From the IMG/VR virus record IMGVR_UViG_2541047922_000008: a stretch of 18,265 nucleotides of DNA; one strand, 5' to 3'. The translations under genes and the position numbers were made by a program. The notes beneath the pieces are model-generated. The model was not told the DNA's origin. It saw nothing but the letters and a program-made list of their open reading frames with translations, and did not search any database. The stretch is from a virus (Duplodnaviria; Heunggongvirae; Uroviricota; Caudoviricetes). Shown piece after piece: positions 1,015-18,265 of this stretch. Each line of letters starts with the position of its first letter. The stretch's first letter is position 1.

Positions 1015-3770
1015 CAGTTCCCCACCGCCTTTCCAAAATCCGGTGCTCTACGTGGCGCAATAGCACCCGGTTCCCACCAACTCGTTATGTCGAACTCCCG
1101 TTGCGAGCGGTCCCTTACTCGATCATTGTAACCAGGGTTTGCCATCTCCTGAAGTTGTTGCAATATCAGGTGATTGGTTATCGCTTTCGCATACCACAGG
1201 TTTGCGAATGGGGTGATCATGCGGGCTGTTTTCAGTGCATCGGCACCGAATGATGTTTCTTCACCCTGTAGAGCCTTCTGTGGGTTAGTAATCAGTAATT
1301 TTGTTAACTGCTCTGCAAAGCTCAACACAGGGCCCCCCATAGTGGCACCGATGCTGGAGCCATATTGCGTATGGTCCTGGAAAATAAAATCACCGTAGAT
1401 ACCGAACGAACCACCTTTCAGTAAAGCCTGAACCCATGTGGTTGGTTTTGTCATATCCAGCGGATCATTACCATTTAACAAACTGTTCATCTGGATCGCA
1501 AACATACCAGCAAGAGTTGTTCCCCCGATATATGAGGCCAGAAATTTAATGGCCGGAACGGTGTCCAAATCCCGTGTTCTGTTAACAAGTTGCCGAAATC
1601 CAGCAAATGGGGTTGTTTTGAAGAGCATGAAGCTCTTCATTAACTCGCCAGCATCATCACGGGCATATGTATCAATACCCGTAGCGGTGGTCACAGCATT
1701 GGTCATCTCACCGTGCGTAATTCCCAGCAATTTCTGGGCTGCTTCAGCGCGTGCATTACGAATCATGCGCGTGATGGTCTGCTCAGCCTCAGCGTCGAAT
1801 GCTTCTTTCATCCGTTTCAGGCGTTCTGGAGGGAGATCTCCAAGGGCTGCCAGTGCCTTTTCACTCCCGGCACGAATCCGGGTAATACGGTCTGCCATAA
1901 TGTCGGCTATTACGTTATCGGGCACAGCGTAAATCGCGTCTGGCGTCATCCCCATATGCCCGGCAGTAGTCATCGGCCTGAGTTCTGCCGCTGCCATGAT
2001 GGCCCAGTCCTCATTGCTCCATCCCTTGTTAGCCAGAATGGTTTTATCGGTTCCTTTCATATCGTCCAGCGTCTTAAATTTTCTGGTCAGCTCGCCAATG
2101 TTTTTGTACATCAGGAGACCAAACGACGCTTTGTTTGCGCGGTCCATAGCGATCAGCCCGGACCACTTCAGTGTCTTCTCTGCGAACCAGCCAGTTATGC
2201 CGCGAGACAAGTCAAACCCGCCCATTTTCGAAACCACAGCAGCATGTGAATCCACCAGCAGACCGAGTTCAGCATTCGCCTTTTTGGCATCTCCACTAAA
2301 CAGGTTTTTGATAGTGTTAACGGAAAGCCGCATTCCACCACGGGTAAAGCCCAGCGCCTGCGCATTTGCCCGCATAATTGCCTGGTCGCTGGTTGCTGTC
2401 AGTACGCTGGTGCCAAGCATGGCGCTGGTCATCAGGTTACGCAGACCACCAACTGCTGAAGAGAACACACTCGATGAAGCGACACCATTTAGGCCAGCCA
2501 TTGAGTTGAACATACGGGCAACTAATTTGGCCTCATCCTCCATTTCTTTTTTGCGTTTCCCGCCTGTTACTGCGCGCTTATAGATGCGATCCAGTACCAG
2601 GGAAAAGTTTCTTTCGGCGTCCGGACCAAAGGCTTTAACGACGCCCAAATCCCTGGATGATGATTGCAGGTGCGACATCATCACCCCCACCAGCGGCTGC
2701 TGAGTGTATCGCTCCATATAGGCGAAGTGTGACTGCGCATCCTTGAACGCCATCACCCTGTGCTGAGAACCACGGCTCTTTATTCCTCCGGCTCCCATAA
2801 ATGTACCAGGCTCAATTTTGTTTGCCCCATCAGTGGCCTTCGTTTCAAAGATCGCTTCCAGTGCCTGACGGTACTCGACGTCATTCATAATGCTGCCGTC
2901 AGGATTAACGTAATTGCTGCGATCCTGCGTGTTGTAAGCGTCATCAACCCATTTCTGGCGGGCAAACTCAATCGGTGGCTGGCGACCTGAAAGACGTGCT
3001 GTAGCTTGCTCTGCCACTGGTAACGATGCCAGCCATTCTTCGCGCCCGGCATTGCGAATAAGGTCAGCATCATCCACATATGGCGTATGCCAGTCTTCTC
3101 GCAGGCCTATGTCAAAGCCATTGTCGTTCATCTCATGACGAACACGGCCTGTTACATCCTTCCAAATCTGTGCAATTTTCTTCGCCAGGGGATTCCCGGT
3201 ATCTTCGCCATATATTTCTTTCAGGATCTGGAGTTGTGCAGACTTTGCCGCCTGCCTGTCGAATACACTCCGAAACCGCTGCTCTCCAAGCGCCCTGCTC
3301 TGCTCGAAGAATTTGCGGACGTCATCACCTGCTTTTAGAAGTTCAGCACTGAGCTGACGGGACCAGTCCTGATATGCCCCAATTGCAAGCTCTTCAGCAG
3401 AAGTAACGGAGATATCAGCTTTGTCTCTCGATCGTCGGCCAGCAAAAATAAACTGCTGCAAATTAACAGGTGTCTGCTGATCAGGCGGGATGTTAGCATC
3501 GAGAGTGTCAGTAATTTTACTGATGGCGATCGCATTCTGGGCAACACGCTGTCTTTTCTTGTACACATCATGAACCACACGCTGGCGAACCAGTTCTGCA
3601 GCATCCATGTATGTTTGAGCATCAGGAATACCACTTTTGCCTTCCATTGCATTCTTTCTGTGCACTTGCCGCACAGCTTCTTTGATACGATCTTCGATAT
3701 TTTTCAGCTCATCAGCCTTTGGCTGGCGACCAAGTGTCTGCGCAATAGCTTCAACACATGCCTGTTTCAT
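1014..3770 (-). CDS. large protein (918 aa from ATG 3770) of unknown function, phage internal-virion/ejection-like
   Basis: Long ORF. I prefer ATG at 3768-3770 (GAGGA SD 7 nt upstream, TAATG overlap with the upstream stop) over the GTG at 3791 used by the track. Contains Gly-rich hydrophobic segments (SSVFSSAVGGLRNLMTSAMLGTSVLTA; GGTTLAGMFAIQ; KGGSFGIYGDFIF; ATMGGPVLSF) and long helical charged regions. No catalytic motif recognised. Confidence 0.85.
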   Translation of the reverse strand: MKQACVEAIAQTLGRQPKADELKNIEDRIKEAVRQVHRKNAMEGKSGIPDAQTYMDAAELVRQRVVHDVYKKRQRVAQNAIAISKITDTLDANIPPDQQTPVNLQQFIFAGRRSRDKADISVTSAEELAIGAYQDWSRQLSAELLKAGDDVRKFFEQSRALGEQRFRSVFDRQAAKSAQLQILKEIYGEDTGNPLAKKIAQIWKDVTGRVRHEMNDNGFDIGLREDWHTPYVDDADLIRNAGREEWLASLPVAEQATARLSGRQPPIEFARQKWVDDAYNTQDRSNYVNPDGSIMNDVEYRQALEAIFETKATDGANKIEPGTFMGAGGIKSRGSQHRVMAFKDAQSHFAYMERYTQQPLVGVMMSHLQSSSRDLGVVKAFGPDAERNFSLVLDRIYKRAVTGGKRKKEMEDEAKLVARMFNSMAGLNGVASSSVFSSAVGGLRNLMTSAMLGTSVLTATSDQAIMRANAQALGFTRGGMRLSVNTIKNLFSGDAKKANAELGLLVDSHAAVVSKMGGFDLSRGITGWFAEKTLKWSGLIAMDRANKASFGLLMYKNIGELTRKFKTLDDMKGTDKTILANKGWSNEDWAIMAAAELRPMTTAGHMGMTPDAIYAVPDNVIADIMADRITRIRAGSEKALAALGDLPPERLKRMKEAFDAEAEQTITRMIRNARAEAAQKLLGITHGEMTNAVTTATGIDTYARDDAGELMKSFMLFKTTPFAGFRQLVNRTRDLDTVPAIKFLASYIGGTTLAGMFAIQMNSLLNGNDPLDMTKPTTWVQALLKGGSFGIYGDFIFQDHTQYGSSIGATMGGPVLSFAEQLTKLLITNPQKALQGEETSFGADALKTARMITPFANLWYAKAITNHLILQQLQEMANPGYNDRVRDRSQREFDITSWWEPGAIAPRRAPDFGKAVGN

Positions 3771-5830
3771 TATGGGTTCCTCAAGAAGCACGCTGCCGCT
3801 ACAGAATAAACCTTCGATTCGTTCTGGACTGTCTTAATCTGTTCATCCAACTCAGCCAGGAGATCAGAAAGTTTTGTCGGGTTTCCGGTTTCCGGGTGAG
3901 CTATAGTCAGCTCAGGATTGGCAACAGCCATGTCCCTAGCAGCCATAAGGTCATAGCTGTTGGATGAGAGAACCTGCCCTGTATCTGGATCAACGCTGAC
4001 GTCCCCTCTGTGTTCACCAGCCGATGAGAAAGCACTTTCAGCACGAGGGACAGGCGATTCACTAATTGGCTCTGATGATGTTTCATATCTGACACCATTT
4101 TCTTCAAAAACCTTTTGTATTTCATGGTATTGCTCTTGGTAAGTATCAGATATATCTGATCGCAATGGACCATCAAGCCCTCGCGCCATCCCCCCAACAT
4201 TTACAGGCTGACCATCATTAAGTTGCCTGTATGCTTCATCCATGGCGTCAACATGGCTGTTGATGCTCTCATTGCTGGTGTGAAGCACTGGTGACGATTC
4301 AATATCGTAATGAAGCCCCTCATTCAAAATGTGGGCTGCATCAATATCGCTTGGTTTTATTCTTTCCCTCGCCCGGATACCAAAAACTTTTTCTACTGCG
4401 GCTTCCAGTTTCATATTGCGAAGACGCATACTTACGAGTAACCGTAACTGCTCAGGTGTAACGGTTCCAACCTGAATACCACTGTATCTGAATATATAGG
4501 CTTTAAAACCTGAAATAATTTTTTCCCATGATGAAACGCTTGTCTTTAGAGATGGATTTACTGCATGTGCGGCAACTTCTTCAGCGTACAACCACTCAGG
4601 ATATGTTTCAGGGTACTCACCCCTTTTCTTATATTCATAATATTGTGACATCCCATATGCAAATTCAGGATAGTCAGAATGCTTGTTTGCAGATTTAAGT
4701 ACAGCATTAGCTAGCTTTCTGGCCTTCCAGTCAGGGTAATGGCGCTGCTCAAGATGAAGCGCCTCGTGATGAAGGGTTTCTAACAGTTCTTCATGGTCTT
4801 TTAATCCATTAATATTTATTCTTATTATTGGTTCTTTTCCAGAAGCTACTGTCACATGACCTTTATTCAGAAGTATTTCTCCATCACTATTTTTTATTGC
4901 TGGTTCATTAATAAGTTCTATTACTCCTGAATCAGATAAATCACGAACCATTGACTCAATGTTACCATCAGGAGATTGCTGATAATGTTCACCAAAAGTT
5001 GATTTTATTTCTTCTGCAGAAATGTTCGACTCTGTACCATCATGGTTATTATGGGTAGTCAGGTGATGAACGCCACCAAAGACCCCGCCTAAAACGGCAT
5101 CGACTAACATCGCCTGACCGTCAAATACCCGGTACTGTTTTGCCATCTCCGTGTAGCCTTTTTCCTCCAGTGTTGCGCCGACAGAGTAACGGTTCAGTCC
5201 ACCGAATCCGGTGTTGATTGCCACACCTGAGGCAATGCGCGTTGCCAGTGTGGTGCCGACGGCAGCGGGTAAGGCCATACCCACAGCATTGAAAAGGCTT
5301 TGCTGCGTTGCCAGGTTACGCGCCGTAGCCTCGTCTACTCCCTTCCCTTTAAAATCCTGATAGGACTGCTCATACGTAGAACTGAAAGCTGTAGCAGCGC
5401 CGATGAGGGGACCGCCAAACATAGTTGTTCCGATTGCAGGAACAAATTTACCAAGCTCATTTAATACCTCAGCCGCCATTCCCTGACTGCCTGCATCAGG
5501 CTTCACATAGCTGCGGGCATCCTGTAACTGTTTTCCGATCGTGTCGTATGTATCATTCAGTGTTTTGTCAGCATCAGGGAACATCTCCCGAAAAATATTA
5601 ACAGTCGGTGCCACGTCTGCGGTAAATGCCGGATCGCTAATCAGGCGCTTGCTGAATCCGACGGCAGACTGCGCGAGACCGAGAGTCCCCTCCGCCACGC
5701 CGCTCAAAAGTGCAGTACCTGAACCCTGGAAGGGAGTCGGATCGTAGTCTTCTGGCCTTGCTGGGTTGGCAACTGTTTTGTCGTCAATCCATGCCTGACC
5801 TTCTGGAGCCAAAGAAAAAACATCAGACAT
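3770..5830 (-). CDS. large protein (686 aa) with Gly-rich hydrophobic N-terminal third and a central HEXXH (zincin-like) region
   Basis: Long ORF. GAGGG SD 7 nt upstream and a TAATG overlap with the 843-aa gene stop. N-terminal segments PAIGTTMFGGPLIGAATAF, NAVGMALPAAVGTTLATRIASGVAINTGFGG and VDAVLGGVFGGV. HEALH at residues 355-359. Confidence 0.85.
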   Translation of the reverse strand: MSDVFSLAPEGQAWIDDKTVANPARPEDYDPTPFQGSGTALLSGVAEGTLGLAQSAVGFSKRLISDPAFTADVAPTVNIFREMFPDADKTLNDTYDTIGKQLQDARSYVKPDAGSQGMAAEVLNELGKFVPAIGTTMFGGPLIGAATAFSSTYEQSYQDFKGKGVDEATARNLATQQSLFNAVGMALPAAVGTTLATRIASGVAINTGFGGLNRYSVGATLEEKGYTEMAKQYRVFDGQAMLVDAVLGGVFGGVHHLTTHNNHDGTESNISAEEIKSTFGEHYQQSPDGNIESMVRDLSDSGVIELINEPAIKNSDGEILLNKGHVTVASGKEPIIRININGLKDHEELLETLHHEALHLEQRHYPDWKARKLANAVLKSANKHSDYPEFAYGMSQYYEYKKRGEYPETYPEWLYAEEVAAHAVNPSLKTSVSSWEKIISGFKAYIFRYSGIQVGTVTPEQLRLLVSMRLRNMKLEAAVEKVFGIRARERIKPSDIDAAHILNEGLHYDIESSPVLHTSNESINSHVDAMDEAYRQLNDGQPVNVGGMARGLDGPLRSDISDTYQEQYHEIQKVFEENGVRYETSSEPISESPVPRAESAFSSAGEHRGDVSVDPDTGQVLSSNSYDLMAARDMAVANPELTIAHPETGNPTKLSDLLAELDEQIKTVQNESKVYSVAAACFLRNP
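4754..4768 (-). other. HEXXH motif (HEALH) of the 686-aa protein
   Basis: The reverse complement of 4754-4768 is CAC GAG GCG CTT CAT = H E A L H, in the context LETLHHEALHLEQRH. The motif alone does not prove a metallopeptidase. Confidence 0.55.
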
Positions 5831-8361
5831 TATTCAACCCTCACGACAATAGCTTCATTGGTTCTGGGATCTGTTGCCCAGCGTCCGCTACCATTTACCA
5901 GCCGATACCGGTTATTGCCGATATTAACTGGTGTGAAGTTTGACACTGCATTTACGTTAAGTCCGGCTTCTTTCAGTGCTTGTTTCGCAGATGTGGTATA
6001 GCGATCTTTGAAAGTAGATTTATCCATGCCGAAAGGCATTACAACGTCGCCGCCATTAAAATCCTTGTATATACCGCCAGTAGCATACTTCACGGCATCA
6101 GCAACAGTGTCTGTATCAGGCATACTGGTTCTTACCGTAGATGCATCACCTGATTGATAAGCTATTCCTGCGTAAGCGGCTTTGAAAAGGCTATAACTGA
6201 TCTGACGTAACTGCGGGTTACGGGCAAATGCGTTACCTACCTGTTTGTCGAAAGCGTCTTTCATCTTATCTTCGCTCGGCAACTGTACCGGAGTTATGCC
6301 CGCATTCTTCATGGCCTTCGTCGGATTCAGTAGTTGGTCACCGGAAAGAATAACCTTTGCAACGTCGTACTTGTTCATCGTCGGCTTATACCCGATGAAC
6401 TGACTATATGGGATCGACGGTCTGGTGTTATCGTACTGATTATCCGGCGTGCCCAGCAGCAGCGCAGAATAGGCTGTTGCCGCACTGTTCGGAGCAATTA
6501 CAGATGCCACCTGCCGTATTGCTGGCGCAGGCAGCTTCTCCCCCATGCTCTGCAACAGTTTAATTGTCTGGTCAACGTTCTGAGTGCCGCGCACCTGCTG
6601 TGCCAGCGCAGCCGCCTCTTCACTGTTGAGGATTGGGGCATTAATTCCCAACGCGCGTAAGCTTTCCTGCGACGAGAAACGGTTAGCCACCTCGGCAGTG
6701 ATGTCGTCAGGGTTGTTGCTGGTGATCGGCTTATAGGCTCCGATTTCCACCGCTGCACTAAACGGATTATTCTGCCTCTGGGTTATTACCTTCGTGGCTG
6801 CCGCCGATACCCGGTCGAATAACTCCGCACGAGACGCATACCCCTCCCCTGTCTCACCAGTATCCGGGCGTAATTGCTCAACATATGCGGTAATGCTGCT
6901 TGTCGGCATGTTGCGGAAAGAGCCTATATACTGTCCGGCGATCTGCAAATTTCTGAACTCGGTATATCGCAGGTTTCCTTCTCTGACACCATAAGCAGCA
7001 ATGAACTCACCCTCACCAGGCGGGTTAGGAAATTCAACGCCACGCATATACGCAGCCGTTGCATCGCGAACCCGGCTTTCGAGCATCGTTCTATATTCAG
7101 CCTGCTGCTGTCTGGCTAATGCATCCGTCTGTCGCAACACGCTGGCCTGATCTGATTCACTTAAAGCATCGAACCAAGCTACACCGGTATAACGTTTATT
7201 TTTTGTCGGTAGCTGAGAAAGCCCCAGTGCGGCACTAACGCCAGCGGCCAATTGCTGATCACTGTACGGCTGACTGCCTTGCTCATGATGAATAATTGCT
7301 TTGCACAGAGATTTCAGTGTGTCAGGATTTGATGCGTCAAGCGGCTGGTCAGGAGTTACACCGAGCTGAGCACATACTGCCCGTATATAAGCATCAGTTT
7401 TATTATCATCACTGGCCGGTGCCCAGCGATTAATTATTTCGCTGATGGTGTCATAACCCTGACGCTGATACGACAGCAAATTGCGACCAAGCGCGCGAAT
7501 ACCGTGTTCAGGGGTTTCGAATTTGGCAAAGCGACCATCATCACCAGTCTGCCCAACCCACGGATTAGTTTTGCTGTATTCAAGATTGCCGGGGTTATTG
7601 TTGCGTATACCGCGGGTACGATCGGAAGAGCCACTATCTGCTACAGCACGGCGAGATCCAGCAGCAGTATCGCTTAACTCGCCGTTTTGCTGTCTTACCT
7701 GAAGATAGTTTGCTCCAATAGCATTTTGAGCAGTTGCTTTTGCTGTTGCTTCTTTAAACTCGATTTTCTTGGCCTGGATTTGCTCGTCGCTCCAGCCATG
7801 CGCAATACCGTAATCCTCAATTTGCTGGAAAGTTTGCGTATTAGCCAATATGTATGCTGCGTTGTCGCCATATAATGCTGAGGCATTTTTACCATTATTC
7901 AGCAGTGTCGCCTGAAACTGGCCTTCTTCGTAGGCATTTATTTGCCCTATCTCGTACCTCCCGGCCTGCGTAGCGAACTGAATACGCTGCTGCTGCGCCT
8001 GCTGCATGAAAGCATTACGAGCCTGTTCATCCGGCAGCGACATAGCCAGTTGTTCGATCTGAGCATCAAACTGCTGTGTATACTCATGGCCTTTTCCAAT
8101 AGCATTTTTCCCTTTCAGGTTAAGCAATCCTGTTTCAGGATTATTCAGCAGATCACTGCCTGTCTGACTGAGTTTAAGGGATGCCTCCTGAACCAAGGCA
8201 ATATTGGCGCGCTGTTTTGCCTGACCAAGAACATCAATTGCCTCTGTCCCTGCCCGAACAAAAGCATCACCAATACCTGGCTGAGAAAACGTCTGCAAGC
8301 CTGCTGACTGAACTCCACGGCTCTCAACCTGGCGTCCGGATACTGTTGGTACGACTGGCAT
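5830..8361 (-). CDS. large protein (843 aa) with a central RNNNPGN-type domain, phage virion-associated cell-wall-hydrolase-like
   Basis: Long ORF with AGGGGG SD. The N-terminus is Q/A-rich and helical (MPVVPTVSGRQVESRGVQSAGLQTF...). Residues ~250-372 read RGIRNNNPGNLEYSKTNPWVGQTGDDGRFAKFETPEHGIRALGRNLLSYQRQGYDTISEIINRWAP. I recall this pattern from phage structural or putative muramidase proteins (memory, unverified). Confidence 0.85.
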   Translation of the reverse strand: MPVVPTVSGRQVESRGVQSAGLQTFSQPGIGDAFVRAGTEAIDVLGQAKQRANIALVQEASLKLSQTGSDLLNNPETGLLNLKGKNAIGKGHEYTQQFDAQIEQLAMSLPDEQARNAFMQQAQQQRIQFATQAGRYEIGQINAYEEGQFQATLLNNGKNASALYGDNAAYILANTQTFQQIEDYGIAHGWSDEQIQAKKIEFKEATAKATAQNAIGANYLQVRQQNGELSDTAAGSRRAVADSGSSDRTRGIRNNNPGNLEYSKTNPWVGQTGDDGRFAKFETPEHGIRALGRNLLSYQRQGYDTISEIINRWAPASDDNKTDAYIRAVCAQLGVTPDQPLDASNPDTLKSLCKAIIHHEQGSQPYSDQQLAAGVSAALGLSQLPTKNKRYTGVAWFDALSESDQASVLRQTDALARQQQAEYRTMLESRVRDATAAYMRGVEFPNPPGEGEFIAAYGVREGNLRYTEFRNLQIAGQYIGSFRNMPTSSITAYVEQLRPDTGETGEGYASRAELFDRVSAAATKVITQRQNNPFSAAVEIGAYKPITSNNPDDITAEVANRFSSQESLRALGINAPILNSEEAAALAQQVRGTQNVDQTIKLLQSMGEKLPAPAIRQVASVIAPNSAATAYSALLLGTPDNQYDNTRPSIPYSQFIGYKPTMNKYDVAKVILSGDQLLNPTKAMKNAGITPVQLPSEDKMKDAFDKQVGNAFARNPQLRQISYSLFKAAYAGIAYQSGDASTVRTSMPDTDTVADAVKYATGGIYKDFNGGDVVMPFGMDKSTFKDRYTTSAKQALKEAGLNVNAVSNFTPVNIGNNRYRLVNGSGRWATDPRTNEAIVVRVE
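7246..7614 (-). other. RNNNPGN-containing conserved domain inside the 843-aa protein
   Basis: The reverse complement of 7585-7605 is CGC AAC AAT AAC CCC GGC AAT = R N N N P G N. Domain limits were estimated by eye. Confidence 0.5.
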
Positions 8362-8766: not shown

Positions 8767-8790
8767 AAAAAAAGCCGGATTGCTCCGGCT
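8767..8790 (-). terminator. rho-independent terminator ending the replication operon
   Basis: Minus strand reads gccgga-gcaa-tccggc followed by T7. It separates the replication module from the cassette. Confidence 0.7.
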
Positions 8791-8796
8791 CTGTGC

Positions 8797-8946
8797 TTAC
8801 TTCTGGTAGTTACGCCATACTGATTTCCCGATCCCATCTATCCCCATTTCTTTTTCAGTGCGTTTAAGCGACCGTTTCAGGTCTTCTAAATTATCCGGTT
8901 GCTTTGGTGGCCTCTGTGCCTTGCTGGAACATTCCAGTCGTCGCAT
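8797..8946 (-). CDS. possible 49-aa basic protein (MRRLECSSKAQRPPKQPDNLEDLKRSLKRTEKEMGIDGIGKSVWRNYQK)
   Basis: Hand-found ORF below the track cutoff. Its stop lies 7 nt before the terminator. SD is weak and no family was recognised. Confidence 0.3.
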   Translation of the reverse strand: MRRLECSSKAQRPPKQPDNLEDLKRSLKRTEKEMGIDGIGKSVWRNYQK

Positions 8947-9030
8947 TGATATGCAATACCGTTCCTTGTCAGTACCCCAACTGCATTACTTCACCCCATC
9001 GCGCCGCCGCTCTTCGGTACAGGGTTTTAG

Positions 9031-9447
9031 TTAGCCTCCGACTCTTCCGTAGTGCTGTTCTGGTGGATTCACATAGCCCCTTTCTTGCAGGTATTCGCGA
9101 ATATCAGACATCAGGAGACGGTTAACCGTGCTCTTGTCTTTTCTCCGGTAAAGGCGTCTGGTGATCATGAAGTAGTTAGCAATGATCTCCGGTATATCCC
9201 TGACGCTGATACATGCTGTATGCTGGTCAATAGCTTCAATCATCTCTTCACGAGTTACAAAAGTCTGGCGTAAACGAGTGATCACACCATGTACATCTGA
9301 ATGATCATTTATACGCTTATTTTGGCGCTTCGCGCTCTCGACTGTGACACTGACAACAATGTCAACTCTTTGTTTTTCCGCAATTTCATCCACAATGTGA
9401 TCACCTGCACGGCGACCATGTGCGTGATCATTTCTTACTATTTCCAT
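9031..9447 (-). CDS. hypothetical protein, 138 aa
   Basis: ORF co-oriented with the operon, overlapping the proQ/finO-like stop by 20 nt. No family recognised. Confidence 0.65.
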
Positions 9448-9925
9448 TCATCTCCTCCAGTAGTTTTCCTGCGTGCGTCTGTTGTAGTGGTGTTACCTCG
9501 CCGCACGGCTGGCCTTTCAGGTCGTAACGCGCGCCACCAGCTACCAGGGCGCGGTAATAGCGCGGAGTCTGCACATAACGCGCCAGCGTTGCGCGTAGTG
9601 TTCCCTGTCCGAGTGAAATACCTCTCGCGGCAATATCCTGTATCAGGTCGTCAAATATCCCCACCTTAAGCGGCTTAGGTGATTCCGGGCTGAATAATTC
9701 AGGCCATAGCTCAATAAGACGGTTAACGCGTCTGCGGTTTTTACGCTGCTGTTTGGTCATACGCCGCCGCGGTGTTGCTCCTGTGAGCTTCTGCTGTGTG
9801 TTCTGGTTATCTGGCATCACTTTATGCGCCGATGTGGTTTTATTCTGCTGCTGCGCCGCCTGTGCTGTTTTCTGCGGCGTGCCGTAAATGCCCTTCGGTT
9901 TTCTGTTTATGGTCAGCTTTGTCAT
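9428..9925 (-). CDS. ProQ/FinO-domain RNA-binding protein, 165 aa
   Basis: Basic N-terminus followed by [29 protein letters not shown]...[35 protein letters not shown], the characteristic FinO/ProQ domain pattern. GGGGAAGG SD. Confidence 0.85.
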
Positions 9926-9961
9926 GCCTTCCCCTGTAATTACTCTGTTCGCTGTTGTGAA

Positions 9962-10387
9962 TTAAAACGGTATCCCGTCCCCGTACGGATCATCGTGCTG
10001 GCCTGTCTGTTGCTTTGCCCTGTTCAGTGCATCAGTAGCCTGCCCCTGCTGGCCTTTTTTGCCGCCCGGTCGCGCCGTTCGCGCACTGATTACGCTGTCT
10101 GCGATAACCTGCCATCCCTGCCTCGTTTCGCCGTTCTGGCCCGTCCACCGGCTCACCTGCATGTTACCGGCCACGCTTACCAGTTCGCCTTTGTGGTGTT
10201 TTGCCAGTGCGTCAGCCTGTCTGCCAAACGCCAGGACGGATAACCACATCGTCGCCGTTCCGTCATCTGCCTGATTGCATGGAAGGGGGACCGCCATACT
10301 CGCCATCGCCATTTGTGTGCCCTTGCTGGTGGTCTTTAACTGCGGGTCAGCCACCAGCCGCCCGTAAGCTGATATTTGCGCCGTCAT
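9962..10387 (-). CDS. ssb: single-stranded DNA-binding protein, 141 aa
   Basis: OB-fold-like N-terminal region, a Gly/Gln-rich linker, and an acidic tail ending DDPYGDGIPF (canonical SSB tip ...D-I-P-F). Confidence 0.9.
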   Translation of the reverse strand: MTAQISAYGRLVADPQLKTTSKGTQMAMASMAVPLPCNQADDGTATMWLSVLAFGRQADALAKHHKGELVSVAGNMQVSRWTGQNGETRQGWQVIADSVISARTARPGGKKGQQGQATDALNRAKQQTGQHDDPYGDGIPF

Positions 10388-10449
10388 GCTGTTTGTTCTC
10401 CGGTTTTAACGTGATAGTTACGCTTGTTTACACTCTTACAGTGAAATTT

Positions 10450-10574
10450 TGCGGGTTACAATCGCACATTTGCGGGTTATAACTGCCGTTTTGCGGGTTA
10501 CGTGCGGGTTATTGATTTCCTTTTTAATCATGCAGTTAATTAACTTATACACAGGATAACCCGCATAACCCGCA
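10450..10574. repeat. iteron array, putative replication origin
   Basis: TGCGGGTTA at 10450, 10471, 10492 and 10503 (spacings 21, 21, 11 bp). An AT-rich core follows (attgatttcctttttaatcatgcagttaattaacttatac). Two inverted copies TAACCCGCA sit at 10557 and 10566. The array lies directly downstream of the primase/helicase stop. Confidence 0.75.
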
Positions 10575-10597
10575 ACTTTTTACCTCACACAGGGAAG

Positions 10598-12724
10598 TTA
10601 ATCTTCTGCTTCAGGCTGGAACATCAGCACGTAAAAAATATGCTGCTTCCCGCCAATCCTGCCGAGCGCCTTTTTCTTGTAACGGCGGTCGCCTCCCGCT
10701 TCCAGCATTCCGGCAGCACTCAACGCGCGGGCAAAGTGAGACGGATTAAATCCCTGTGCTATCTCACCCTCAAACACATGCGGGAACGTGTAAAAACGGA
10801 ACTCGTCATCTTCGTTTCTGATACTCCCCTTTCTGTATCCGGCAAGGTCTTTAATCGGTAAATCACGCTCGTCGCTGTTTGGATAGGGAAGGTATCGACT
10901 GAACCCGAACGACGACAAAAACGCCTCAGCCTGTTCAACCATCTGTTTAAATTCCCTGTTGCCCGTGCCGAATTCCTTCACCCAGGCATTAAAGTTATGC
11001 TGAACTGCATCACGGCACGCCTGAACATCCCAGCCTGTAACATGACCGGAAAGCACAAGCGCGGCCTCCAGTACGGCGAATCTTTCCCCCACACGGTGAA
11101 CCTGCTCGCCGTAGCTCTCCGGTATCAGGTTGCGCCACCGCTCGCGACATGCCCTTACCGCGTCCTTTGCCTCCTGCTGGTGGCCTGCCAGCCATTTAAC
11201 CCACTCACGACCTGCCGCCCCGTGATTTTCTGTCCAGGCATCTTTTAACGCGTCTGCGTGCGCCTTTCCGGTGCTGTATTCGTGAAACTGCGAGGCCTTT
11301 TCCATCGGTACGTTAAGCAGACGGACAAGCTGCCCCGCTTTAATTTTTATCCCTTCCGTTTTGAGGAATGTTTCAACGTCCATTTCTCCGGTGCTGATTG
11401 CCACCGTGCGCCAGTGTTTTATCTCCCTGTTGCCGCCGTCCTTCGCCCCCTGTAATTTCCCGGAACCGTTAAACAGCGTATAGGCTGACGTGGACACCTC
11501 CCGTGCGTTTCCGGCCTGGCCTATTTCATCCAGGGGTAACAGCCCGTCATTATGTGCTTCGGCCTCGTTGGCGATACCTAACGCCGTTCCGTACCAGGTC
11601 AGCCGTTGCGCGTCCGGCTCTCCCCATAAACTTGATGCAATGTTCTGTGTGGTGGTTTTACCTGCTGATGATTGCTCAAAAAGATGAACCCCGAAGCCGT
11701 CAGCACCCACCAGCCCGATTAATGGTGCAGATAGCGATACCGCCACACCCAGCATCATGGACGGATTACCACCAGCCAGCCGTGCCACGGTATCGCGCCA
11801 GCCCTCCGCTGTTCCCGCCACGGAATAGCCATTAACAGCGGCAGTTTTTCCGGTAAACAGGATGGGTTTCTCTGATTCACCAATGACCGAACCGTCCGGC
11901 ATGATGTACGCACCAAAATGCCACCCCGTTGTTGTGCTTAACTGCCATTCCTCATGGTTTCCGCTTAACTGCATCCAGTCAGCCAGGATAGCCCTGTATT
12001 TGCCGTTGGTCGTCACGTTAAGGCCGTGGTCTTTCAGCAACCGCCAGCCGTCACGGTCACCAATGCCTCCGCACGGGACCGCCATTGTAATGACCTCATG
12101 GTTTGCTGGTTTTTTCCAGCGCATTACGCGGTAATGCTCTTTTCCGATTGTTCCTGTTCCCAGTAGTTCAAGCGGAGAACATAACCACGTCTCAGGCCGG
12201 ATAATTTCGCCTGACTGCTTGTCCACTTTGGGCGTTACCCAGAAAACACCATCGACGCGACTTTCAACACGAGGCTTTAATTCGTCATCATAATTTCCGG
12301 TGAAATTTGTCTTCGCCGGAAGGTTGATCACCAGACTGTTACCGTGTTCCGCATCATCCTTCAGTCCAGCCATGCGCGGTGTCCAGTCCTCCGGCTGCTG
12401 ATCAACAAAGCTGCGGTAGCAACGCGCCTCCTTCACACCCGCCACTGCAAGCAGTGTCGCTATCTGTGTAAGGTGCTGCTCTGATATTTCACCAGCACGA
12501 TAAACGCGCACGTAATAGCGCCCTTTGTCGATGATTTGCGTGTCTGCCAGACTCGCCAGTTGTTCCGGTCCAAGAATAACTGGATGTGTATCATCTGCCG
12601 CAATATGCTTTCCGGCCCATTCGCTCCACTCTTTCGCATGTGCCCAGGCATCACTACCCGCAAAGATAATCACCTCCGTCATTTTGTCTTTCGGCTGGTG
12701 CTTTAAATTCGGTGCGCGTTTCAT
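10598..12724 (-). CDS. DUF927-type P-loop primase/helicase (functional analogue of P4 alpha / PICI Pri-Rep), 708 aa
   Basis: Walker A is FEQSSAGKTT; the reverse complement of 11654-11662 is GGT AAA ACC = GKT. Walker B-like LLPLDEIGQ. Overall resemblance to DUF927 replication proteins of islands. ATGA overlap with the upstream gene and iterons immediately downstream. Confidence 0.85.
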   Translation of the reverse strand: MKRAPNLKHQPKDKMTEVIIFAGSDAWAHAKEWSEWAGKHIAADDTHPVILGPEQLASLADTQIIDKGRYYVRVYRAGEISEQHLTQIATLLAVAGVKEARCYRSFVDQQPEDWTPRMAGLKDDAEHGNSLVINLPAKTNFTGNYDDELKPRVESRVDGVFWVTPKVDKQSGEIIRPETWLCSPLELLGTGTIGKEHYRVMRWKKPANHEVITMAVPCGGIGDRDGWRLLKDHGLNVTTNGKYRAILADWMQLSGNHEEWQLSTTTGWHFGAYIMPDGSVIGESEKPILFTGKTAAVNGYSVAGTAEGWRDTVARLAGGNPSMMLGVAVSLSAPLIGLVGADGFGVHLFEQSSAGKTTTQNIASSLWGEPDAQRLTWYGTALGIANEAEAHNDGLLPLDEIGQAGNAREVSTSAYTLFNGSGKLQGAKDGGNREIKHWRTVAISTGEMDVETFLKTEGIKIKAGQLVRLLNVPMEKASQFHEYSTGKAHADALKDAWTENHGAAGREWVKWLAGHQQEAKDAVRACRERWRNLIPESYGEQVHRVGERFAVLEAALVLSGHVTGWDVQACRDAVQHNFNAWVKEFGTGNREFKQMVEQAEAFLSSFGFSRYLPYPNSDERDLPIKDLAGYRKGSIRNEDDEFRFYTFPHVFEGEIAQGFNPSHFARALSAAGMLEAGGDRRYKKKALGRIGGKQHIFYVLMFQPEAED

Positions 12725-13025: not shown

Positions 13026-13283
13026 TTATTTCCCGGTATGGGGTTCTTCTTTATATTTATGGGCTAACAAATCTGGTAATTGCCTGTATTTATCCTCGGC
13101 AATATATTCAGAATAATCGACAGCACTGTTCAGTATATCTAACGCCGTTTCATGCTCCAGATTCGAAACTATAAGGAACGTTGCTACTTTTAGCATATTC
13201 GCGATATGCAAAAGAGCATCAATTTCATTTTTTGGCGCTTCACTGAATTTTTGCTCCAGAAGAATAAATCGTTCATCACGCAT
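13026..13283 (-). CDS. hypothetical protein, 85 aa, AT-rich
   Basis: AGGGGGA SD. Its start overlaps the Icd-like stop (ATGCGTGA). No family recognised. Confidence 0.6.
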   Translation of the reverse strand: MRDERFILLEQKFSEAPKNEIDALLHIANMLKVATFLIVSNLEHETALDILNSAVDYSEYIAEDKYRQLPDLLAHKYKEEPHTGK

Positions 13284-13479
13284 AGTATTCCCCCTGACGG
13301 ATGCGGGCAGTAAATACCATCACGCAGCCAGTCGGGGATTGCTGACGGGCTTCCTGTTCGCTGGCGGCCTCGATGTGTATTACGCGTGGTTGTGCGGTGC
13401 TCAGGGCGATAAAACGCCAGATGTATTTATTCAGGTTGTGCGAGTCCCGCCCTTGCGGGTGTGTGGTATGATTTAACAT
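13276..13479 (-). CDS. icd: Icd-like (host cell division inhibitor family) small protein, 67 aa
   Basis: Internal ATG (13477-13479) of the spurious 396-aa track ORF, with a GAGGT SD. The sequence MLNHTTHPQGRDSHNLNKYIWRFIALSTAQPRVIHIEAASEQEARQQSPTGCVMVFTARIRQGEYYA has the Y-I-W-x-F ... SE-x-EAR ... F-x-AR pattern I associate with Icd-like proteins of P4-like elements (memory). Confidence 0.65.
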   Translation of the reverse strand: MLNHTTHPQGRDSHNLNKYIWRFIALSTAQPRVIHIEAASEQEARQQSPTGCVMVFTARIRQGEYYA

Positions 13480-13484
13480 AGCTA

Positions 13485-13582
13485 CCTCGATACGCTTTCT
13501 ATCGTTGGTGGTTAGACGCCCTGCATGTGTTGCGAGCACTGCGGGGCGTTGCTTAATTTGAGCAATGCAACCCAAACTGTGC
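13485..13582 (-). ncRNA. structured leader, candidate C4/CI/IsrK-type antisense immunity RNA
   Basis: ~100-nt leader between the predicted start site and icd. A 9-bp stem with one mismatch and a 14-nt loop spans 13517-13548. A 5-bp hairpin at 13488-13504 abuts the SD. In P1 and P4-like elements a C4/CI RNA precedes icd. No covariance-model search was possible. Confidence 0.35.
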
Positions 13583-13588
13583 GCACAG

Positions 13589-13616
13589 ATTAAAATCATG
13601 TGTGCGCACATGTCAA
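13589..13616 (-). promoter_or_regulatory. strong sigma70-like promoter of the icd-primase operon
   Basis: Minus strand reads TTGACA (13616-13611), 16-nt spacer, TTTAAT (13594-13589). Confidence 0.6.
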
Positions 13617-13619
13617 TAC

Positions 13620-13648
13620 TTAACTTCTCACTTTTTTTGCTGTATTGT
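13620..13648 (+). promoter_or_regulatory. candidate promoter of the + strand RHH gene
   Basis: TTAACT (13620-13625), 17-nt spacer, TATTGT (13643-13648). Back-to-back with the minus-strand promoter. Confidence 0.4.
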
Positions 13649-13684
13649 GTGCGCCCATCAAATCCATTTAAGTGAGGTGTACCA

Positions 13685-13882
13685 ATGTCTAGCGGAAACA
13701 CAAACAACAAATCAGCAAAGAAAAATATTCGATTCCCGCACGAGCTTATAGATGGGATTGATGCCAGTGTTGAACAAGAAAAATTAACTAATCCTAGTGC
13801 TAATTTTTCCGCATGGGTCTTAGATGCCTGTGGACGCAAATTAAAATATGAACAGCGCCGGAAGGCCAAAGAGCAGGAGTAA
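13685..13882 (+). CDS. small RHH-type regulator (YlcI/YnfO-DUF3950-like), 65 aa; likely repressor acting at the TGTGCGCACA sites
   Basis: GAGGTG SD 5 nt upstream. KNIRFPHELIDGIDASV (strand + helix) and NFSAWVLDACGRKL (helix) fit an RHH fold. Divergent from the operator-bearing promoter. Confidence 0.65.
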   Translation: MSSGNTNNKSAKKNIRFPHELIDGIDASVEQEKLTNPSANFSAWVLDACGRKLKYEQRRKAKEQE

Positions 13883-13909
13883 CCATCACCAGCGCCGTGG
13901 TGCGGTGAA

Positions 13910-13922
13910 CTGTGGCGCACAG
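13910..13922. promoter_or_regulatory. fourth operator-like site (CTGTGgCGCACAG)
   Basis: Same sequence as the 13577-13588 palindrome with one inserted G. Located between the two small + strand ORFs. Confidence 0.4.
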
Positions 13923-13939
13923 GGTTACAGGTATCTACG

Positions 13940-14137
13940 ATGACTGACAAATCATTAAAGAAATTATCCTCATCCAGGAAAAAACAACGCAAAAATGCGG
14001 TAAGCGAACAAGAACAGGAAAGATTTGCGCCATGTGCGTTTGTCCTTGAGAAGTTCTTAAAAGAGTACAGGCGCACAAAAATGGAATCGCATACCTGGAA
14101 AACATCGCAGTATGGCGATGCTAAAGAGCAGGAATAG
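13940..14137 (+). CDS. possible small basic protein, 65 aa
   Basis: ORF with a weak SD, ending with the same AKEQE-stop as the upstream gene. A + strand terminator follows at 14228. Confidence 0.35.
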   Translation: MTDKSLKKLSSSRKKQRKNAVSEQEQERFAPCAFVLEKFLKEYRRTKMESHTWKTSQYGDAKEQE

Positions 14138-14227
14138 CCCACCAGCAAGCCAGCACACTGATCACATTGCCCACCAGCCGCAAATCTGGCATTGTTGGCG
14201 ATGCGTTTGATTTCCTTTGTTCCCACT

Positions 14228-14256
14228 GGCGACCTATCCCGGTCGCCTTTGTTTTG
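14228..14256 (+). terminator. rho-independent terminator of the + strand small-gene unit
   Basis: ggcgacc-tatccc-ggtcgcc followed by tttgttttg. Confidence 0.7.
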
Positions 14257-14305
14257 CCTGTTATCCAGCAACGGGGCGCTTTTTCTTTCTGTAACGTTCG
14301 GATCG

Positions 14306-14863
14306 TTACACATTGCTTTCACCCTCCAGAAAATCAGGCTGATATTTACGCCATAGCGCCCGCTCTTCTCGTTCCAGTGCATCTTTTGCCTCTTTGCATT
14401 GCTGTAACCTGTAACCGCGTTTGCTGGCTTCCTGTTGATATGCAGCCTGACGTTTACTGAAATCATTCAGCATGGCAAACGGAACACCATAACCCCCCGT
14501 TTTGCGGATTGAAGGAATCACCTCGCGGAATACCCAGTTACTGAAACGGTGCGCAAATGTGCCTGGTGTGGAAGCTTTACGGCTGCGGGCGATCAGTTTG
14601 TAGAAACCTGATTCAGAGACAACATTCCAGCTTCTGGCACCACCACGCTTACCGGAATGACCCTCGGTTAAAGCTAGGGTCATTACCTCATCGTTATCCA
14701 GAACTGAAACGGCATCAGTAACATTGCTGATTTCCAGCGCGGCACACACATCAGCGCCAACAAACCACGGCTCGCCGTTGATACTCACTATGCGCACCTG
14801 AATGTCATCGAATTTAATGACAGAGATTTCAGTGCGACCAGCATAAAAGACAGGTTTACGCAT
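14306..14863 (-). CDS. Bro-N domain protein (prophage antirepressor family), 185 aa
   Basis: IKFDDIQVRIVSINGEPWFVGADVCAALEISNVTDAVSVLDNDE matches the Bro-N pattern. 8-nt overlap with the upstream gene. Confidence 0.85.
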   Translation of the reverse strand: MRKPVFYAGRTEISVIKFDDIQVRIVSINGEPWFVGADVCAALEISNVTDAVSVLDNDEVMTLALTEGHSGKRGGARSWNVVSESGFYKLIARSRKASTPGTFAHRFSNWVFREVIPSIRKTGGYGVPFAMLNDFSKRQAAYQQEASKRGYRLQQCKEAKDALEREERALWRKYQPDFLEGESNV

Positions 14864-15731: not shown

Positions 15732-15929
15732 TCAGGCAGCCGTTCCGCGTGATTCGGCAATACGCTGATTGATCCATTCGTCAATTTCACTTTCAACGAA
15801 AGCAATCGCTCGCGAGCCAATTTTAACTGATGCAGGAAATTTACCTTGCCCCATAAGGCGATAAATCCATGCCTTGCTATATCCAGTTCTACGCTGAACT
15901 TCTGTTAAACGAATAAGCGTATTTGACAT
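15732..15929 (-). CDS. alpA: AlpA/Vis-family transcriptional regulator/excisionase, 65 aa
   Basis: LIRLTEVQRRTGYSKAWIYRLMGQGKFPASVKIGSRAIAFVESEIDEWI is the classic AlpA helix-turn-helix. GAGGT SD. Confidence 0.9.
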   Translation of the reverse strand: MSNTLIRLTEVQRRTGYSKAWIYRLMGQGKFPASVKIGSRAIAFVESEIDEWINQRIAESRGTAA

Positions 15930-16928: not shown

Positions 16929-17032
16929 ACCTCAGCGTCCTCTACTGTAGTGGCTGTGCCAGCCCGTCGAGGTATACGGTTTTTCGGGAGCGACCCTAGA
17001 CACAGCCTTTTCTTTCGTCGCTCAAAGTCTAC

Positions 17033-17052
17033 TACTGTATACTCAACCAGTC
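17033..17052. promoter_or_regulatory. LexA (SOS) box-like sequence
   Basis: TACTGTATACTCAACCAGTC has CTG-N10-CAG and 14/20 identity to TACTGTATATATATACAGTA by my count. It lies ~105 nt upstream of the 267-aa gene and overlaps the integrase stop codon. Confidence 0.35.
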
Positions 17053-18265
17053 ATCCACATTTTCCGAACTTGCCATGCACCACGTTGCCGCCCTGTTCCA
17101 GTGAGTCCATATAGTCGGCGTACCACTGGAGCATCTCGCGCCGCCCGTCCAGATATTGCGCATGATTGTACGTGCCACGAATTGAGTTCTTATCAACGTG
17201 TGCAAGCTGCGTTTCTATCCACGCGGTGTTATAGCCCTGCTCATGTAAAATCGTGCTCATCGTGTGCCGGAACCCATGACCAGTAACGCGCCCAGAATAG
17301 CCAATACGACGAATAAGCACGTTCATCGCCATTTCACTCATCGGCTTACTGTGCTGGATTCGACCAGGGAAAATAAACTGATACTGCCCCGTCATGTGTT
17401 TTAACTGTTCCAGAATAGCGATCGCCTGTTCTGAAAGCGGCACACAATGAGGACGGCGCATCTTCATTCGTTCTTTAGGCACTTCCCACAAACGATTATC
17501 AAAATCGATCTCCTGCCATTCTGCCTGTCGTAATTCCCCTGGCCGGAGCCCTGTCAGAATCAATAATCGCATACCCAGCTTGACGATCTGGCTTCCGGTG
17601 TACGTATTAAGAACGCGGAAAAATTCCGGCAGTTCGTCGGCCTTCAAATAGGCATAATGCTCTTTTTTGTGTGGAGCAAATGCGCTTGCCAGATCTGGTG
17701 CGGGGTTATATTCAGCGCGTCCGGTGATGATTGCGTACCGGAACACCTCGCCGCATCGCTGGCGAACCTTACGCAATTTTTCGGTCGCCCCACGGTCATT
17801 AAGACGGGAGAGAACCGCAAGCAACTCCATTGGCTTAATTTCTGCGATCGGCCTGCCGCCAATGTACGGAAAAACGTCTTTTTCAAACGTCTCGATCATT
17901 TCCTCGGCGTATGACGATGACCACCTGTCGATCCGCTTTTCATACCATTCGCGAGCGATACCCTCAAAAGTATTGCCAAATTTGCTCGCCTGTTCTCGCT
18001 TTTGAGCTTTTCTGGCCTCACTTGGATTTATACCACCAGCAAGAAGCCTTTTAGCCTCATCCCTTGCCGCTCTGGCATCAGACAGAGACACATCAGGGTA
18101 CACGCCCAACGACAACATTTTGGGCTTTCCTGCAAATCTGTAACGTAGTCGCCACCCTTTCGAGCCGTTCGGCTCAATGAGTAACGAAAGCCCGTTACCG
18201 TCATTGAGTGTATAAGCCTTTTCTTTCGGCTTCGCGCGCCTGATAGCAAGGTCTGAAAGCAGCAT
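17051..18265 (-). CDS. int: P4-type tyrosine integrase, 404 aa
   Basis: N-terminus LSDLAIRRAKPKEKAYTLNDGNGLSLLIEPNGSKGWRLRYRFAGKPKMLSLGVYPDVSLSDAR is typical of P4-family integrases. The C-terminal catalytic region contains RPGELRQAEW, HGFRHT and RGTYNHAQY. Confidence 0.95.
   Translation of the reverse strand: MLLSDLAIRRAKPKEKAYTLNDGNGLSLLIEPNGSKGWRLRYRFAGKPKMLSLGVYPDVSLSDARAARDEAKRLLAGGINPSEARKAQKREQASKFGNTFEGIAREWYEKRIDRWSSSYAEEMIETFEKDVFPYIGGRPIAEIKPMELLAVLSRLNDRGATEKLRKVRQRCGEVFRYAIITGRAEYNPAPDLASAFAPHKKEHYAYLKADELPEFFRVLNTYTGSQIVKLGMRLLILTGLRPGELRQAEWQEIDFDNRLWEVPKERMKMRRPHCVPLSEQAIAILEQLKHMTGQYQFIFPGRIQHSKPMSEMAMNVLIRRIGYSGRVTGHGFRHTMSTILHEQGYNTAWIETQLAHVDKNSIRGTYNHAQYLDGRREMLQWYADYMDSLEQGGNVVHGKFGKCG

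Follow-up and report, generated by a model that had tools for sequence, protein, structure and literature searches.

The stretch of DNA analyzed here (18,265 nucleotides; IMG/VR virus record IMGVR_UViG_2541047922_000008, assigned to the Caudoviricetes; hereafter, the window) contains, on its minus strand and downstream of a replication origin, three consecutive genes that encode a single-stranded DNA-binding protein (ssb), a ProQ/FinO-domain protein (finO) and a protein of 138 amino acids (aa) (Table 1). This trio, which had been singled out in the original prediction, is real: the coordinates of the three open reading frames (ORFs) are exactly those given for them beforehand, the RefSeq annotation of the identical sequence agrees, and the Pfam matches of ssb and finO are well above the cut-offs. 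The window is 100% identical to a region of the genome of Escherichia coli FDAARGOS_1298, in which the element is flanked by a tRNA-Gly gene and yqeG. Judging by its gene content, the window is a phage-inducible chromosomal island (PICI) of the EcCICFT073 family, ∼18 kb in length and integrated beside tRNA-Gly, and the trio occupies the distal end of the early/replication operon of this phage satellite. Opposite the leader of the same operon, the island carries a strongly supported candidate for a cis-antisense RNA.

The hallmark genes of PICIs found in the window include those for the integrase, AlpA, AntA- and Bro-N-domain proteins, the Icd-like protein, DUF4222 and DUF927. The features by which Gram-negative PICIs have been defined (PMC6092414), namely, int, alpA, a primase-replicase gene with an origin, all in a single orientation, a size of ∼10–18 kb, a specific attachment site and the lack of lysis and tail genes, are all found here. 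The operon extends on the minus strand from a promoter near position 13610 to an intrinsic terminator, in the order icd–85-aa gene–DUF4222–DUF927–origin–ssb–finO–138-aa ORF–perC remnant. The gene order is that of EcCICFT073 (int, alpA, antirepressor-like genes, a YlcI/YnfO-family gene divergent from the icd-like gene, DUF4222, replicase, origin, ssb and perC), the icd region is 90–92% identical between the two islands, and the antisense RNA is present in both. In contrast, EcCICFT073 lacks finO and has an intact perC gene, downstream of which lie capsid-like genes, decoration genes and two cos sites, whereas the island in the window has finO, a 138-aa ORF derived from P1-like phages, a dead perC and three large cargo genes with no family match; furthermore, its replicase is of the DUF927 type, as opposed to the ‘DNA primase family' type of EcCICFT073. 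The capsid-forming relatives of the island encode an HK97-type capsid protein, portal and terminase after ssb or finO, and in EcCICFT073 and related PICIs the packaging signal or module follows the replication module (PMC6092414). When AlpA is overexpressed, EcCICFT073 replicates in an uncontrolled manner.

The candidate antisense RNA (hereafter, the anti-icd RNA), ∼80 nucleotides in length, would be complementary to the Shine-Dalgarno sequence and the start codon of icd, the first gene of the operon. It is preceded by an extended −10 element, TGGTATGAT, at 13464–13472, which is nearly invariant, as TGGTATGAT or TGGTATAAT, across the islands, and its predicted layout consists of stem-loop I with a variable 7-nucleotide loop, stem-loop II, which is a GC-rich terminator hairpin, and a U-rich tail. 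In an alignment of 72 distinct islands (alignment A5), hairpin II consists of 13 pairs, 8 of which show double compensatory changes, with 95% of the cells paired; the stem is followed by a T-rich tract (mean of 6 T in the first 10 nucleotides), past which the sequences diverge completely. The covariation score for the structure that comprises hairpin II and the inner stem of stem-loop I is 0.245, compared with 0.120 ± 0.007 in shuffled alignments, none of the 500 reaching the observed value, and with at most 0.08 in slid controls; RNAalifold independently recovers the same hairpin. On the plus strand, the alignment contains 108 G·U cells and no A·C cells, an asymmetry which implies that the structure is selected in the plus-strand RNA, and G·U pairs are likewise used in the outer stem of stem-loop I. 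The corresponding 83-nucleotide sequence in the window has a minimum free energy of −38 kcal/mol (z −5.6), and the folding of the minus-strand (sense) leader is no better than that of shuffled sequences (z −1.6).

Table 1. Features of the window; the early/replication operon and its antisense RNA are listed ahead of the rest of the island.
Feature	Coordinates	Strand	Basis
ssb, 141 aa	9962..10387	-	PF00436 (E 2.4e-16), TIGR00621, phrog_44
ProQ/FinO-domain protein (finO), 165 aa	9428..9925	-	PF04352 (E 6.8e-24)
138-aa chimeric ORF	9031..9447	-	tblastn against phages; blastn and tblastx against RCS47
pacA-derived DNA, 156 nucleotides, spanning the P1 pac core	9275..9430	-	84% identity to P1, 83% to RCS47
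ant-derived DNA, first ∼68 codons of a P1/RCS47-type antirepressor	9067..9261	-	82% nucleotide and 70% aa identity to RCS47 ant
perC pseudogene	8797..9022	-	RefSeq ‘frameshifted'; alignment to intact perC genes
intrinsic terminator closing the early/replication operon	8771..8792	-	9-bp GC-rich stem followed by TTTTTTT
candidate ∼80-nucleotide cis-antisense RNA (anti-icd RNA)	13479..13560	+	alignment A5, covariation, G·U asymmetry
sense promoter (TTGACA at 13610-13615, 16-nucleotide spacer, TTTAAT)	13577-13615	-	sequence
icd-like gene, first gene of the operon	13276-13479	-	RefSeq annotation, sequence
85-aa gene, then DUF4222 gene	between icd-like and DUF927	-	gene order
DUF927 primase-helicase	10598-12724	-	Pfam
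replication origin	10448..10578	.	direct repeats, sequence
YlcI/YnfO-family gene, divergent from icd-like	13685-13882	+	RefSeq
AntA- and Bro-N-domain proteins	after AlpA	-	Pfam/RefSeq
AlpA	15732-15929	-	Pfam/RefSeq
267-aa protein	next after integrase	-	gene order
integrase	17051-18265	-	first in gene order
68-aa gene and three large ORFs	beyond terminator	-	no family match

The anti-icd RNA is a family-wide feature of these islands, EcCICFT073 included. Searches with a covariance model located a single copy in each PICI, in every case antisense to the operon; the 67 finO-bearing PICI loci that include icd all contain it, invariably opposite finO, and the final ∼75 nucleotides of the icd leader are conserved whether or not the island has finO. 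A search of the window against Rfam yielded only the int-alpA motif; the anti-icd RNA matches no Rfam family, and no paper describing it was found in a literature search. A same-strand immunity RNA of the P1/P4 type was rejected for this island, given that neither the C4/P4-CI type (RF01695) nor isrK (RF01394) has a match in the window at E values up to 1. One capsid-forming relative with the order ssb–finO (L007) has matches to isrK and to the C4 antisense RNA at 956–1141, close behind the end of a truncated icd, so that an immunity RNA of this type also exists in part of the PICI family. The early promoter on the opposite strand is flanked by GTGCGCAC palindromes at 13579–13586 and 13602–13609, the probable operator sites of the YlcI/YnfO-family protein encoded in the divergent direction. 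The early-promoter region is wholly different between islands, which suggests the existence of immunity types.

The island FinO protein matches PF04352 along residues 64–162, above the curated cut-off (84.4 bits versus 27), and shows an architecture that consists of a conserved N-terminal motif, a basic stretch and the FinO domain. The nearest solved structures are those of the N-terminal domain of ProQ (5nb9, 2e-14) and, next, FinO (4e-11), but the protein falls below the cut-offs for both named families, with 55.7 versus 136 bits for the FinO equivalog/subfamily (NF010317) and 57.5 versus 127 bits for ProQ (NF003434). Tyrosine 123 and arginine 133 are invariant in 17 family members and align with the RYLY...TRVDL region of ProQ as the equivalents of Y70 and R80, the key RNA-binding residues of the ProQ/FinO domain (PMC7491321). 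The island protein resembles ProQ in its best structural match and in the retained RY...R.DL motif, and differs from it in lacking the C-terminal domain, in being encoded by an island and in its presence in only ∼20% of genomes.

A scan with the FinO profile of one genome per species yielded only five loci, so that the distribution of the gene was analyzed in IMG/VR and in E. coli genomes. The family is represented in 1078 of the 5426 complete E. coli genomes (∼20%), in 1543 places, none of which is on a plasmid, the same genomes containing ∼2900 island copies in all; plasmid searches returned only FinO-level similarity (∼31%) and a few relatives with 40–58% identity. Two samples of IMG/VR loci, one anchored on FinO (80 loci) and the other on DUF4222 (62 loci with enough downstream sequence), were annotated locally by tblastn with reference proteins. 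All 71 FinO-anchored loci that extend upstream of finO display the PICI layout. The replicase gene that precedes finO is of the primase-like type in 52 loci, the DUF927 type in 20 (with partial overlap between these two) and the RepA-helicase type in 10. The gene is linked more tightly to perC, which adjoins it in 61 of the 80 loci, than to ssb, which is present in 34; in the island of the E. coli O104:H4 outbreak strain 2011C-3493 (L015) and in a Citrobacter island (L009), the start of perC overlaps the finO stop by 4 nucleotides. In 18 loci, finO is followed by an 82-aa gene and capsid genes, four loci show the order ssb–perC–finO, and in many islands finO occupies the usual slot of ssb. The gene is also found in a second class of islands, of the AlpA/YagK type.

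From the opposite vantage point of the DUF4222-anchored islands, ssb is present in 59 of the 62 and finO in only four, three of which are the island of the window. All four combinations of the two genes exist, as illustrated by the O104:H4 island, which has DUF927–finO–perC (L015, 11438–13394) without ssb, and by CFT073, which has ssb–perC without finO. By the pattern of gene neighborhoods, finO is an optional, independent accessory gene inserted in a fixed slot between the origin or ssb, on one side, and perC or the capsid genes of the capsid-forming PICIs, on the other side. With ssb being part of the core, finO optional and the 138-aa ORF lineage-specific, the trio is not a conserved functional unit. 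The O104:H4 island carries, as its cargo, an AAA ATPase and a DUF4435 protein, a pair that resembles a PARIS-like defence pair.

The ssb gene encodes an SSB that is specific to the island itself, and it belongs to the core of the PICI replication module. Its product matches PF00436 with 60.1 bits (cut-off 26), is only a distant relative of the E. coli SSB (1eqq, 3e-5), and has the C-terminus ...DDPYGDGIPF, the acidic tip of which, ending in IPF, is the SSB tip known from the E. coli protein. The adjacent origin contains three tandem 21-nucleotide iterons (TTTGCGGGTTA...) at 10448–10510 and inverted iteron copies (ATAACCCGCA) near 10556–10578, and this region is 95% identical to the matching intergenic region of a FinO-less relative (L010).

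The original prediction held that the FinO-domain protein is a plausible dedicated partner of an antisense-type leader RNA that the island appears to use for immunity. The existence of the RNA is supported by the covariation, the G·U asymmetry, the U-rich tail and the extended −10 element, and the combination of a FinO-domain protein and an antisense RNA is plausible as such; a dedicated partnership has less in its favor, because the RNA occurs throughout the family irrespective of FinO, and finO occurs without the RNA. What can be proposed, tentatively, is that the island FinO binds the anti-icd RNA as one candidate ligand. Under this scenario, the protein would bind the terminator stem-loop and the U-rich tail, and would stabilize the RNA or speed up its pairing with the icd ribosome-binding site, such that expression of Icd and the replication genes would be limited after induction, or else the island would be re-silenced. 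The location of finO within the operon targeted by the RNA suggests negative feedback in the style of FinOP.

FinO domains preferentially recognize terminator hairpins that carry a 3′ tail (PMC9977716, PMC9674577, PMC7367173), and the predicted layout of the anti-icd RNA is that of such a ligand. The F plasmid offers an analogy. Its finO gene is distal in the same operon that it controls. As with FinO/FinP, the island combines a FinO-domain protein with a candidate antisense RNA of ∼80 nucleotides that is predicted to have two stem-loops and a terminator tail and lies opposite the 5′ untranslated region and ribosome-binding site of a first gene. Unlike FinO/FinP, the element is a phage satellite, the target would be icd and replication rather than traJ, the domain identity is only ∼31% and below the FinO cut-off, the protein and the RNA do not strictly co-occur, and the pairing in the island is predicted from sequence. 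Among the plasmid-encoded proteins, compared by description only, FopA of the IncI1 plasmid pCol1B9 and PcnR of IncI2 are, similarly, small mobile-element FinO-domain proteins with basic N-terminal stretches. Like FinO, FopA serves a single cis-antisense RNA, in this case Inc, which controls the mRNA of the replication initiator (PMC7491321, PMC9977716), and the island finO likewise belongs to a replication module, next to the origin; PcnR, too, controls plasmid copy number (PMC8053102). In contrast to these proteins, the island family is chromosomal only, its best plasmid relatives being a few small-plasmid proteins with ∼40–58% identity over the domain, and the presence of finO behind three unrelated replicase types argues against an antisense RNA specific to the replicase.

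Several observations weigh against the partnership of the island FinO with the anti-icd RNA. The RNA is equally present, and has the same shape, in FinO-less islands (L010–L012 and L024); seven hairpin types are common to islands with and without FinO, and the U content of the tails is equal. Conversely, homologs of finO in L008, L009, L016 and L017 have no copy of the RNA within the sequence covered, so that the protein and the RNA are not co-inherited as a pair. Being encoded inside the controlled operon, FinO cannot act before induction, and the host ProQ, which is always available, could serve the anti-icd RNA. Finally, this particular FinO allele lacks the Lys/Arg-rich C-terminal tail that is present in most of its relatives.

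The strongest competing possibility, which we rank marginally above the partnership even if we stop short of calling it probable, is that FinO acts on other RNAs, namely, the 3′ terminator of its own operon, transcripts of perC or late genes, or RNAs of the helper phage or the host, and accordingly functions in mRNA protection, in a switch from replication to packaging or in interference between the satellite and its helper. This explanation accommodates the tight linkage of finO to perC, with the 4-nucleotide overlaps, and the presence of finO in islands without the anti-icd RNA. The chromosomal ProQ provides a precedent, with hundreds of targets, including phage and island RNAs, that are bound mostly via terminator structures (PMC9977716), and a strong terminator closes the operon; its 28-nucleotide core shows 96% conservation in L011, L012 and L024, where it lies downstream of perC or ssb. 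Set against these facts, no specific alternative RNA was found, the inserted unit is finO alone (L010 compared with L007), the flanks of finO are not conserved between the island classes, and in the window perC is dead and yet finO is intact.

The 138-aa ORF has a different origin. It overlaps the finO stop codon by 20 nucleotides, is preceded by the ribosome-binding site GGAGGAG, and has no match in sequence searches of Pfam, NCBIfam, PADLOC or PDB; the AlphaFold2 model built from a 14-sequence alignment has a predicted local distance difference test score (pLDDT) of 51. Full-length homologs are all at least 86% identical and come from Escherichia only, and among the FinO-anchored IMG/VR loci the ORF occurs in only four, all of which represent the island of the window. 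Comparison with phages by tblastn resolves it into two parts: residues 7–68 match PacA of P1-like phages with 63–68% aa identity, and residues 59–127 match the extreme N-terminus of the P1/RCS47-type antirepressor Ant with 55–73% aa identity, so that the pacA-derived part proper comprises residues ∼7–58 and the ant-derived part residues ∼59–127. The underlying segments of pacA and ant DNA (Table 1) are separated by a gap of 13 nucleotides, compared with a distance of ∼2.9 kb between pacA and ant in a P1-like phage-plasmid. The order in RCS47 is pacA–pacB–(immI)–ant, so that a single captured fragment with an internal deletion of ∼2.9 kb accounts for both pieces. When the rest of the island was compared with the 10-kb pacA-to-c1 region of RCS47, no match was found other than these two segments, and the icd-like gene of the island has no match in that 10-kb stretch, which includes the expected interval of RCS47's own icd.

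With the insertion, FinO lost its basic C-terminal tail and perC its 5′ end, the captured DNA taking their place. The DNA homology of finO to its relatives stops at nucleotide 481 of 498. It is the P1 fragment that provides, within the first of its retained TGATCA hexamers, the stop codon of finO; the start of the chimeric ORF lies 20 nucleotides upstream of this stop. On the other side of the insertion, perC has lost the first ∼14 codons and contains a 2-nucleotide deletion that shifts the frame, so that the intact frame of ∼90 aa (PF06069) is absent; the 49-aa ORF at 8797–8946 is the 3′ remnant of perC and covers only positions 41–88 of the 90 of the PerC profile, that is, the C-terminal half. 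The alignments thus identify the 138-aa ORF, together with the dead perC, as a recombination scar that consists of an internally deleted piece of a P1-like phage-plasmid, ∼365 nucleotides in length.

The two halves of the chimera differ in their patterns of change. The differences between the pacA piece and P1 are distributed among the three codon positions as 6/15/12, with 4 synonymous and 19 nonsynonymous codon changes, and some variants (P0007 and P0009) read the pacA-derived part in another frame; by this measure, the segment is under no protein-level constraint. The differences between the ant piece and RCS47 ant are distributed as 15/9/25, a third-position bias that may predate the capture, having accumulated while the gene was still in a phage. 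On balance, and by a small margin of belief, we favor the view that the chimera is a scar and has no indispensable role itself, although the good ribosome-binding site and the third-position-biased ant half could mean that the ORF is still used.

Might the captured DNA be employed as a signal rather than as a gene? The P1 pac site, ∼161 bp in length, contains seven TGATCA/G Dam hexamers, arranged as 4 + 3 around an IHF site and the cleavage region (PMC10028697). The pacA-derived segment of the island retains an IHF-like site (9363–9375) and the cleavage region (9346–9355), both placed according to the P1 annotation, together with four of the seven P1 hexamers (9425–9430, 9398–9403, 9302–9307 and 9279–9284), in the arrangement 2 + 2; the homology has its left boundary within the block of four hexamers. 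Under this explanation, which we consider unlikely, the segment would be a working, even if weakened, P1-type pac site, such that P1-like phage-plasmids would cut the island there and package it, in the headful mode, towards the cargo genes, a pac-phage counterpart of the helper cos sites in EcCICFT073. The scenario draws on the nucleotide identity of 84% that persists without protein-level constraint, on the location of the remnant at the position that the packaging module occupies in the relatives, and on the use of helper-like cos sites in the packaging of EcCICFT073 (PMC6092414); for a lineage that has no capsid and terminase genes and has lost its packaging module, a pac mimic would be a sensible acquisition. 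Moreover, mutation of the hexamers in P1 lowers the titre or packaging only ∼9-fold (PMC10028697), P1 pac sites placed in the chromosome raise packaging, at least according to the title of Huang & Masters 2014 as cited in that paper, and P1-like plasmids are common in E. coli (548 places). However, hexamers 1, 3 and 6 are lost, although nearly all the P1-like phages compared keep them (the full set of seven is present in six of the seven aligned phages, and the remaining phage differs by one substitution in hexamer 4), and, by our own estimate, the retention of 4 of 6 hexamers is no more than expected by chance at 84% identity (p ∼0.1). In addition, the segment is ∼16% diverged from every P1-like plasmid in the 5426 genomes, with no intermediates, and is restricted to a single island lineage (∼45 genomes), and the island shows no excess of co-occurrence with P1-like plasmids (at most 9 genomes with both, compared with ∼6 expected); together with the decay of the neighboring perC and the internal deletion of the P1 piece, these features favor the recombination scar. 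With only four hexamers, ∼2.9 kb deleted and neither pacA nor pacB function encoded, the segment also differs from P1 itself despite the 82–84% identity of the adjacent pieces to pacA (pac core) and the ant 5′ end. If the remnant does work, this would be the first case in which a pac-site mimic connects PICIs with P1-like phage-plasmids, a group that often carries resistance genes.

An alternative use, at the protein level, would involve the Ant-derived half: the 138-aa product could function via its Ant1-type N-domain as a decoy or dominant-negative factor in the C1/Ant immunity circuit of P1-like elements. The 70% aa identity and the codon-position bias of this half, as well as the strong ribosome-binding site and translational coupling to finO, would fit such a role, and the N-domain is specific to the N-terminus of P1-type Ant proteins, with only 15 relatives among 1.84 billion representative proteins; in 10 of these relatives the alignment covers most of the domain, which there begins at residue 2 or 3. 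We nevertheless regard this function as quite improbable: the codon bias may have been inherited from the phage, the predicted structure is of low quality, variants of the ORF do not share the reading frame of the N-terminal half, the N-domain has no known role in P1 itself, and what remains of Ant is the first ∼68 residues only, fused to an unconstrained PacA-derived peptide. The recombination scar remains the preferred interpretation of this segment.

The last claim of the original prediction, that ssb and the adjacent small ORFs resemble a plasmid leading region in which the 138-aa and 49-aa products would be anti-restriction or anti-SOS factors, draws on nothing more than the proximity of ssb to short unassigned ORFs and is rejected as hardly credible, given that no Pfam match to a relaxase, type IV secretion system, PsiB or ArdA family was found among the window ORFs scanned, so that the comparison fails on the defining features of a leading region within what is otherwise a PICI layout, that almost every PICI of this family has ssb directly after its replicase gene and origin, that this finO family was never found on a plasmid in the E. 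coli genomes, that the small ORFs are a P1 pacA–ant chimera and a perC pseudogene fragment with no PADLOC match, and that a phage satellite enters cells as double-stranded DNA.

Taken jointly, the operon anatomy, the scar and the proposed connection between FinO and the anti-icd RNA make up what we consider the best overall explanation of the locus, with somewhat better than even prospects of being correct. A more ambitious synthesis, in which the anti-icd RNA would be the missing negative regulator of Gram-negative PICIs, with FinO as its chaperone, and, in this lineage, a P1 pac mimic would have replaced the packaging module, has, in our assessment, a low probability. If none of these propositions holds, what is left is a PICI replication module of the ordinary kind that bears a recombination scar. 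The FinO-domain proteins described so far come from conjugative plasmids (FinO, FopA and PcnR) and from chromosomes (ProQ and RocC), whereas the large family described here is found on phage satellites only; it has been noted in annotations but not studied (PMC13612085), and a literature search found no functional study that combines PICIs with ProQ/FinO or with antisense RNA, or the P1 pac site with satellites. Should FinO indeed act with the anti-icd RNA, an RNA switch of the FinOP type, elsewhere a property of conjugative plasmids, would here serve a phage satellite. The most valuable by-product of the analysis is the conserved antisense RNA of the PICI family. This covarying RNA, which spans the ribosome-binding site of the first early gene, is a concrete candidate that lends itself to easy testing, with the island FinO as a handle on it.

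A few features of the window lie outside the operon. A 396-aa ORF at 13276–14466 on the minus strand, which appears in a mechanical list of ORFs, is spurious, as it crosses the icd-like gene, the promoter region and two plus-strand RefSeq genes. The int-alpA RNA motif (RF02996) is located at 16939–17006 on the minus strand, between the integrase and the next gene, and scores 46.9 bits against a gathering score of 35.8; it is also found in a relative from E. ruysiae (L002, 3442–3510). The cargo position (1014–8361 on the minus strand, and 700–1014) is occupied by four back-to-back or overlapping ORFs of 843, 686, 925 and 104 aa that have no match in Pfam, NCBIfam or PADLOC. By analogy with related satellites, which carry anti-phage systems in that position, these ORFs are a candidate new defence system.

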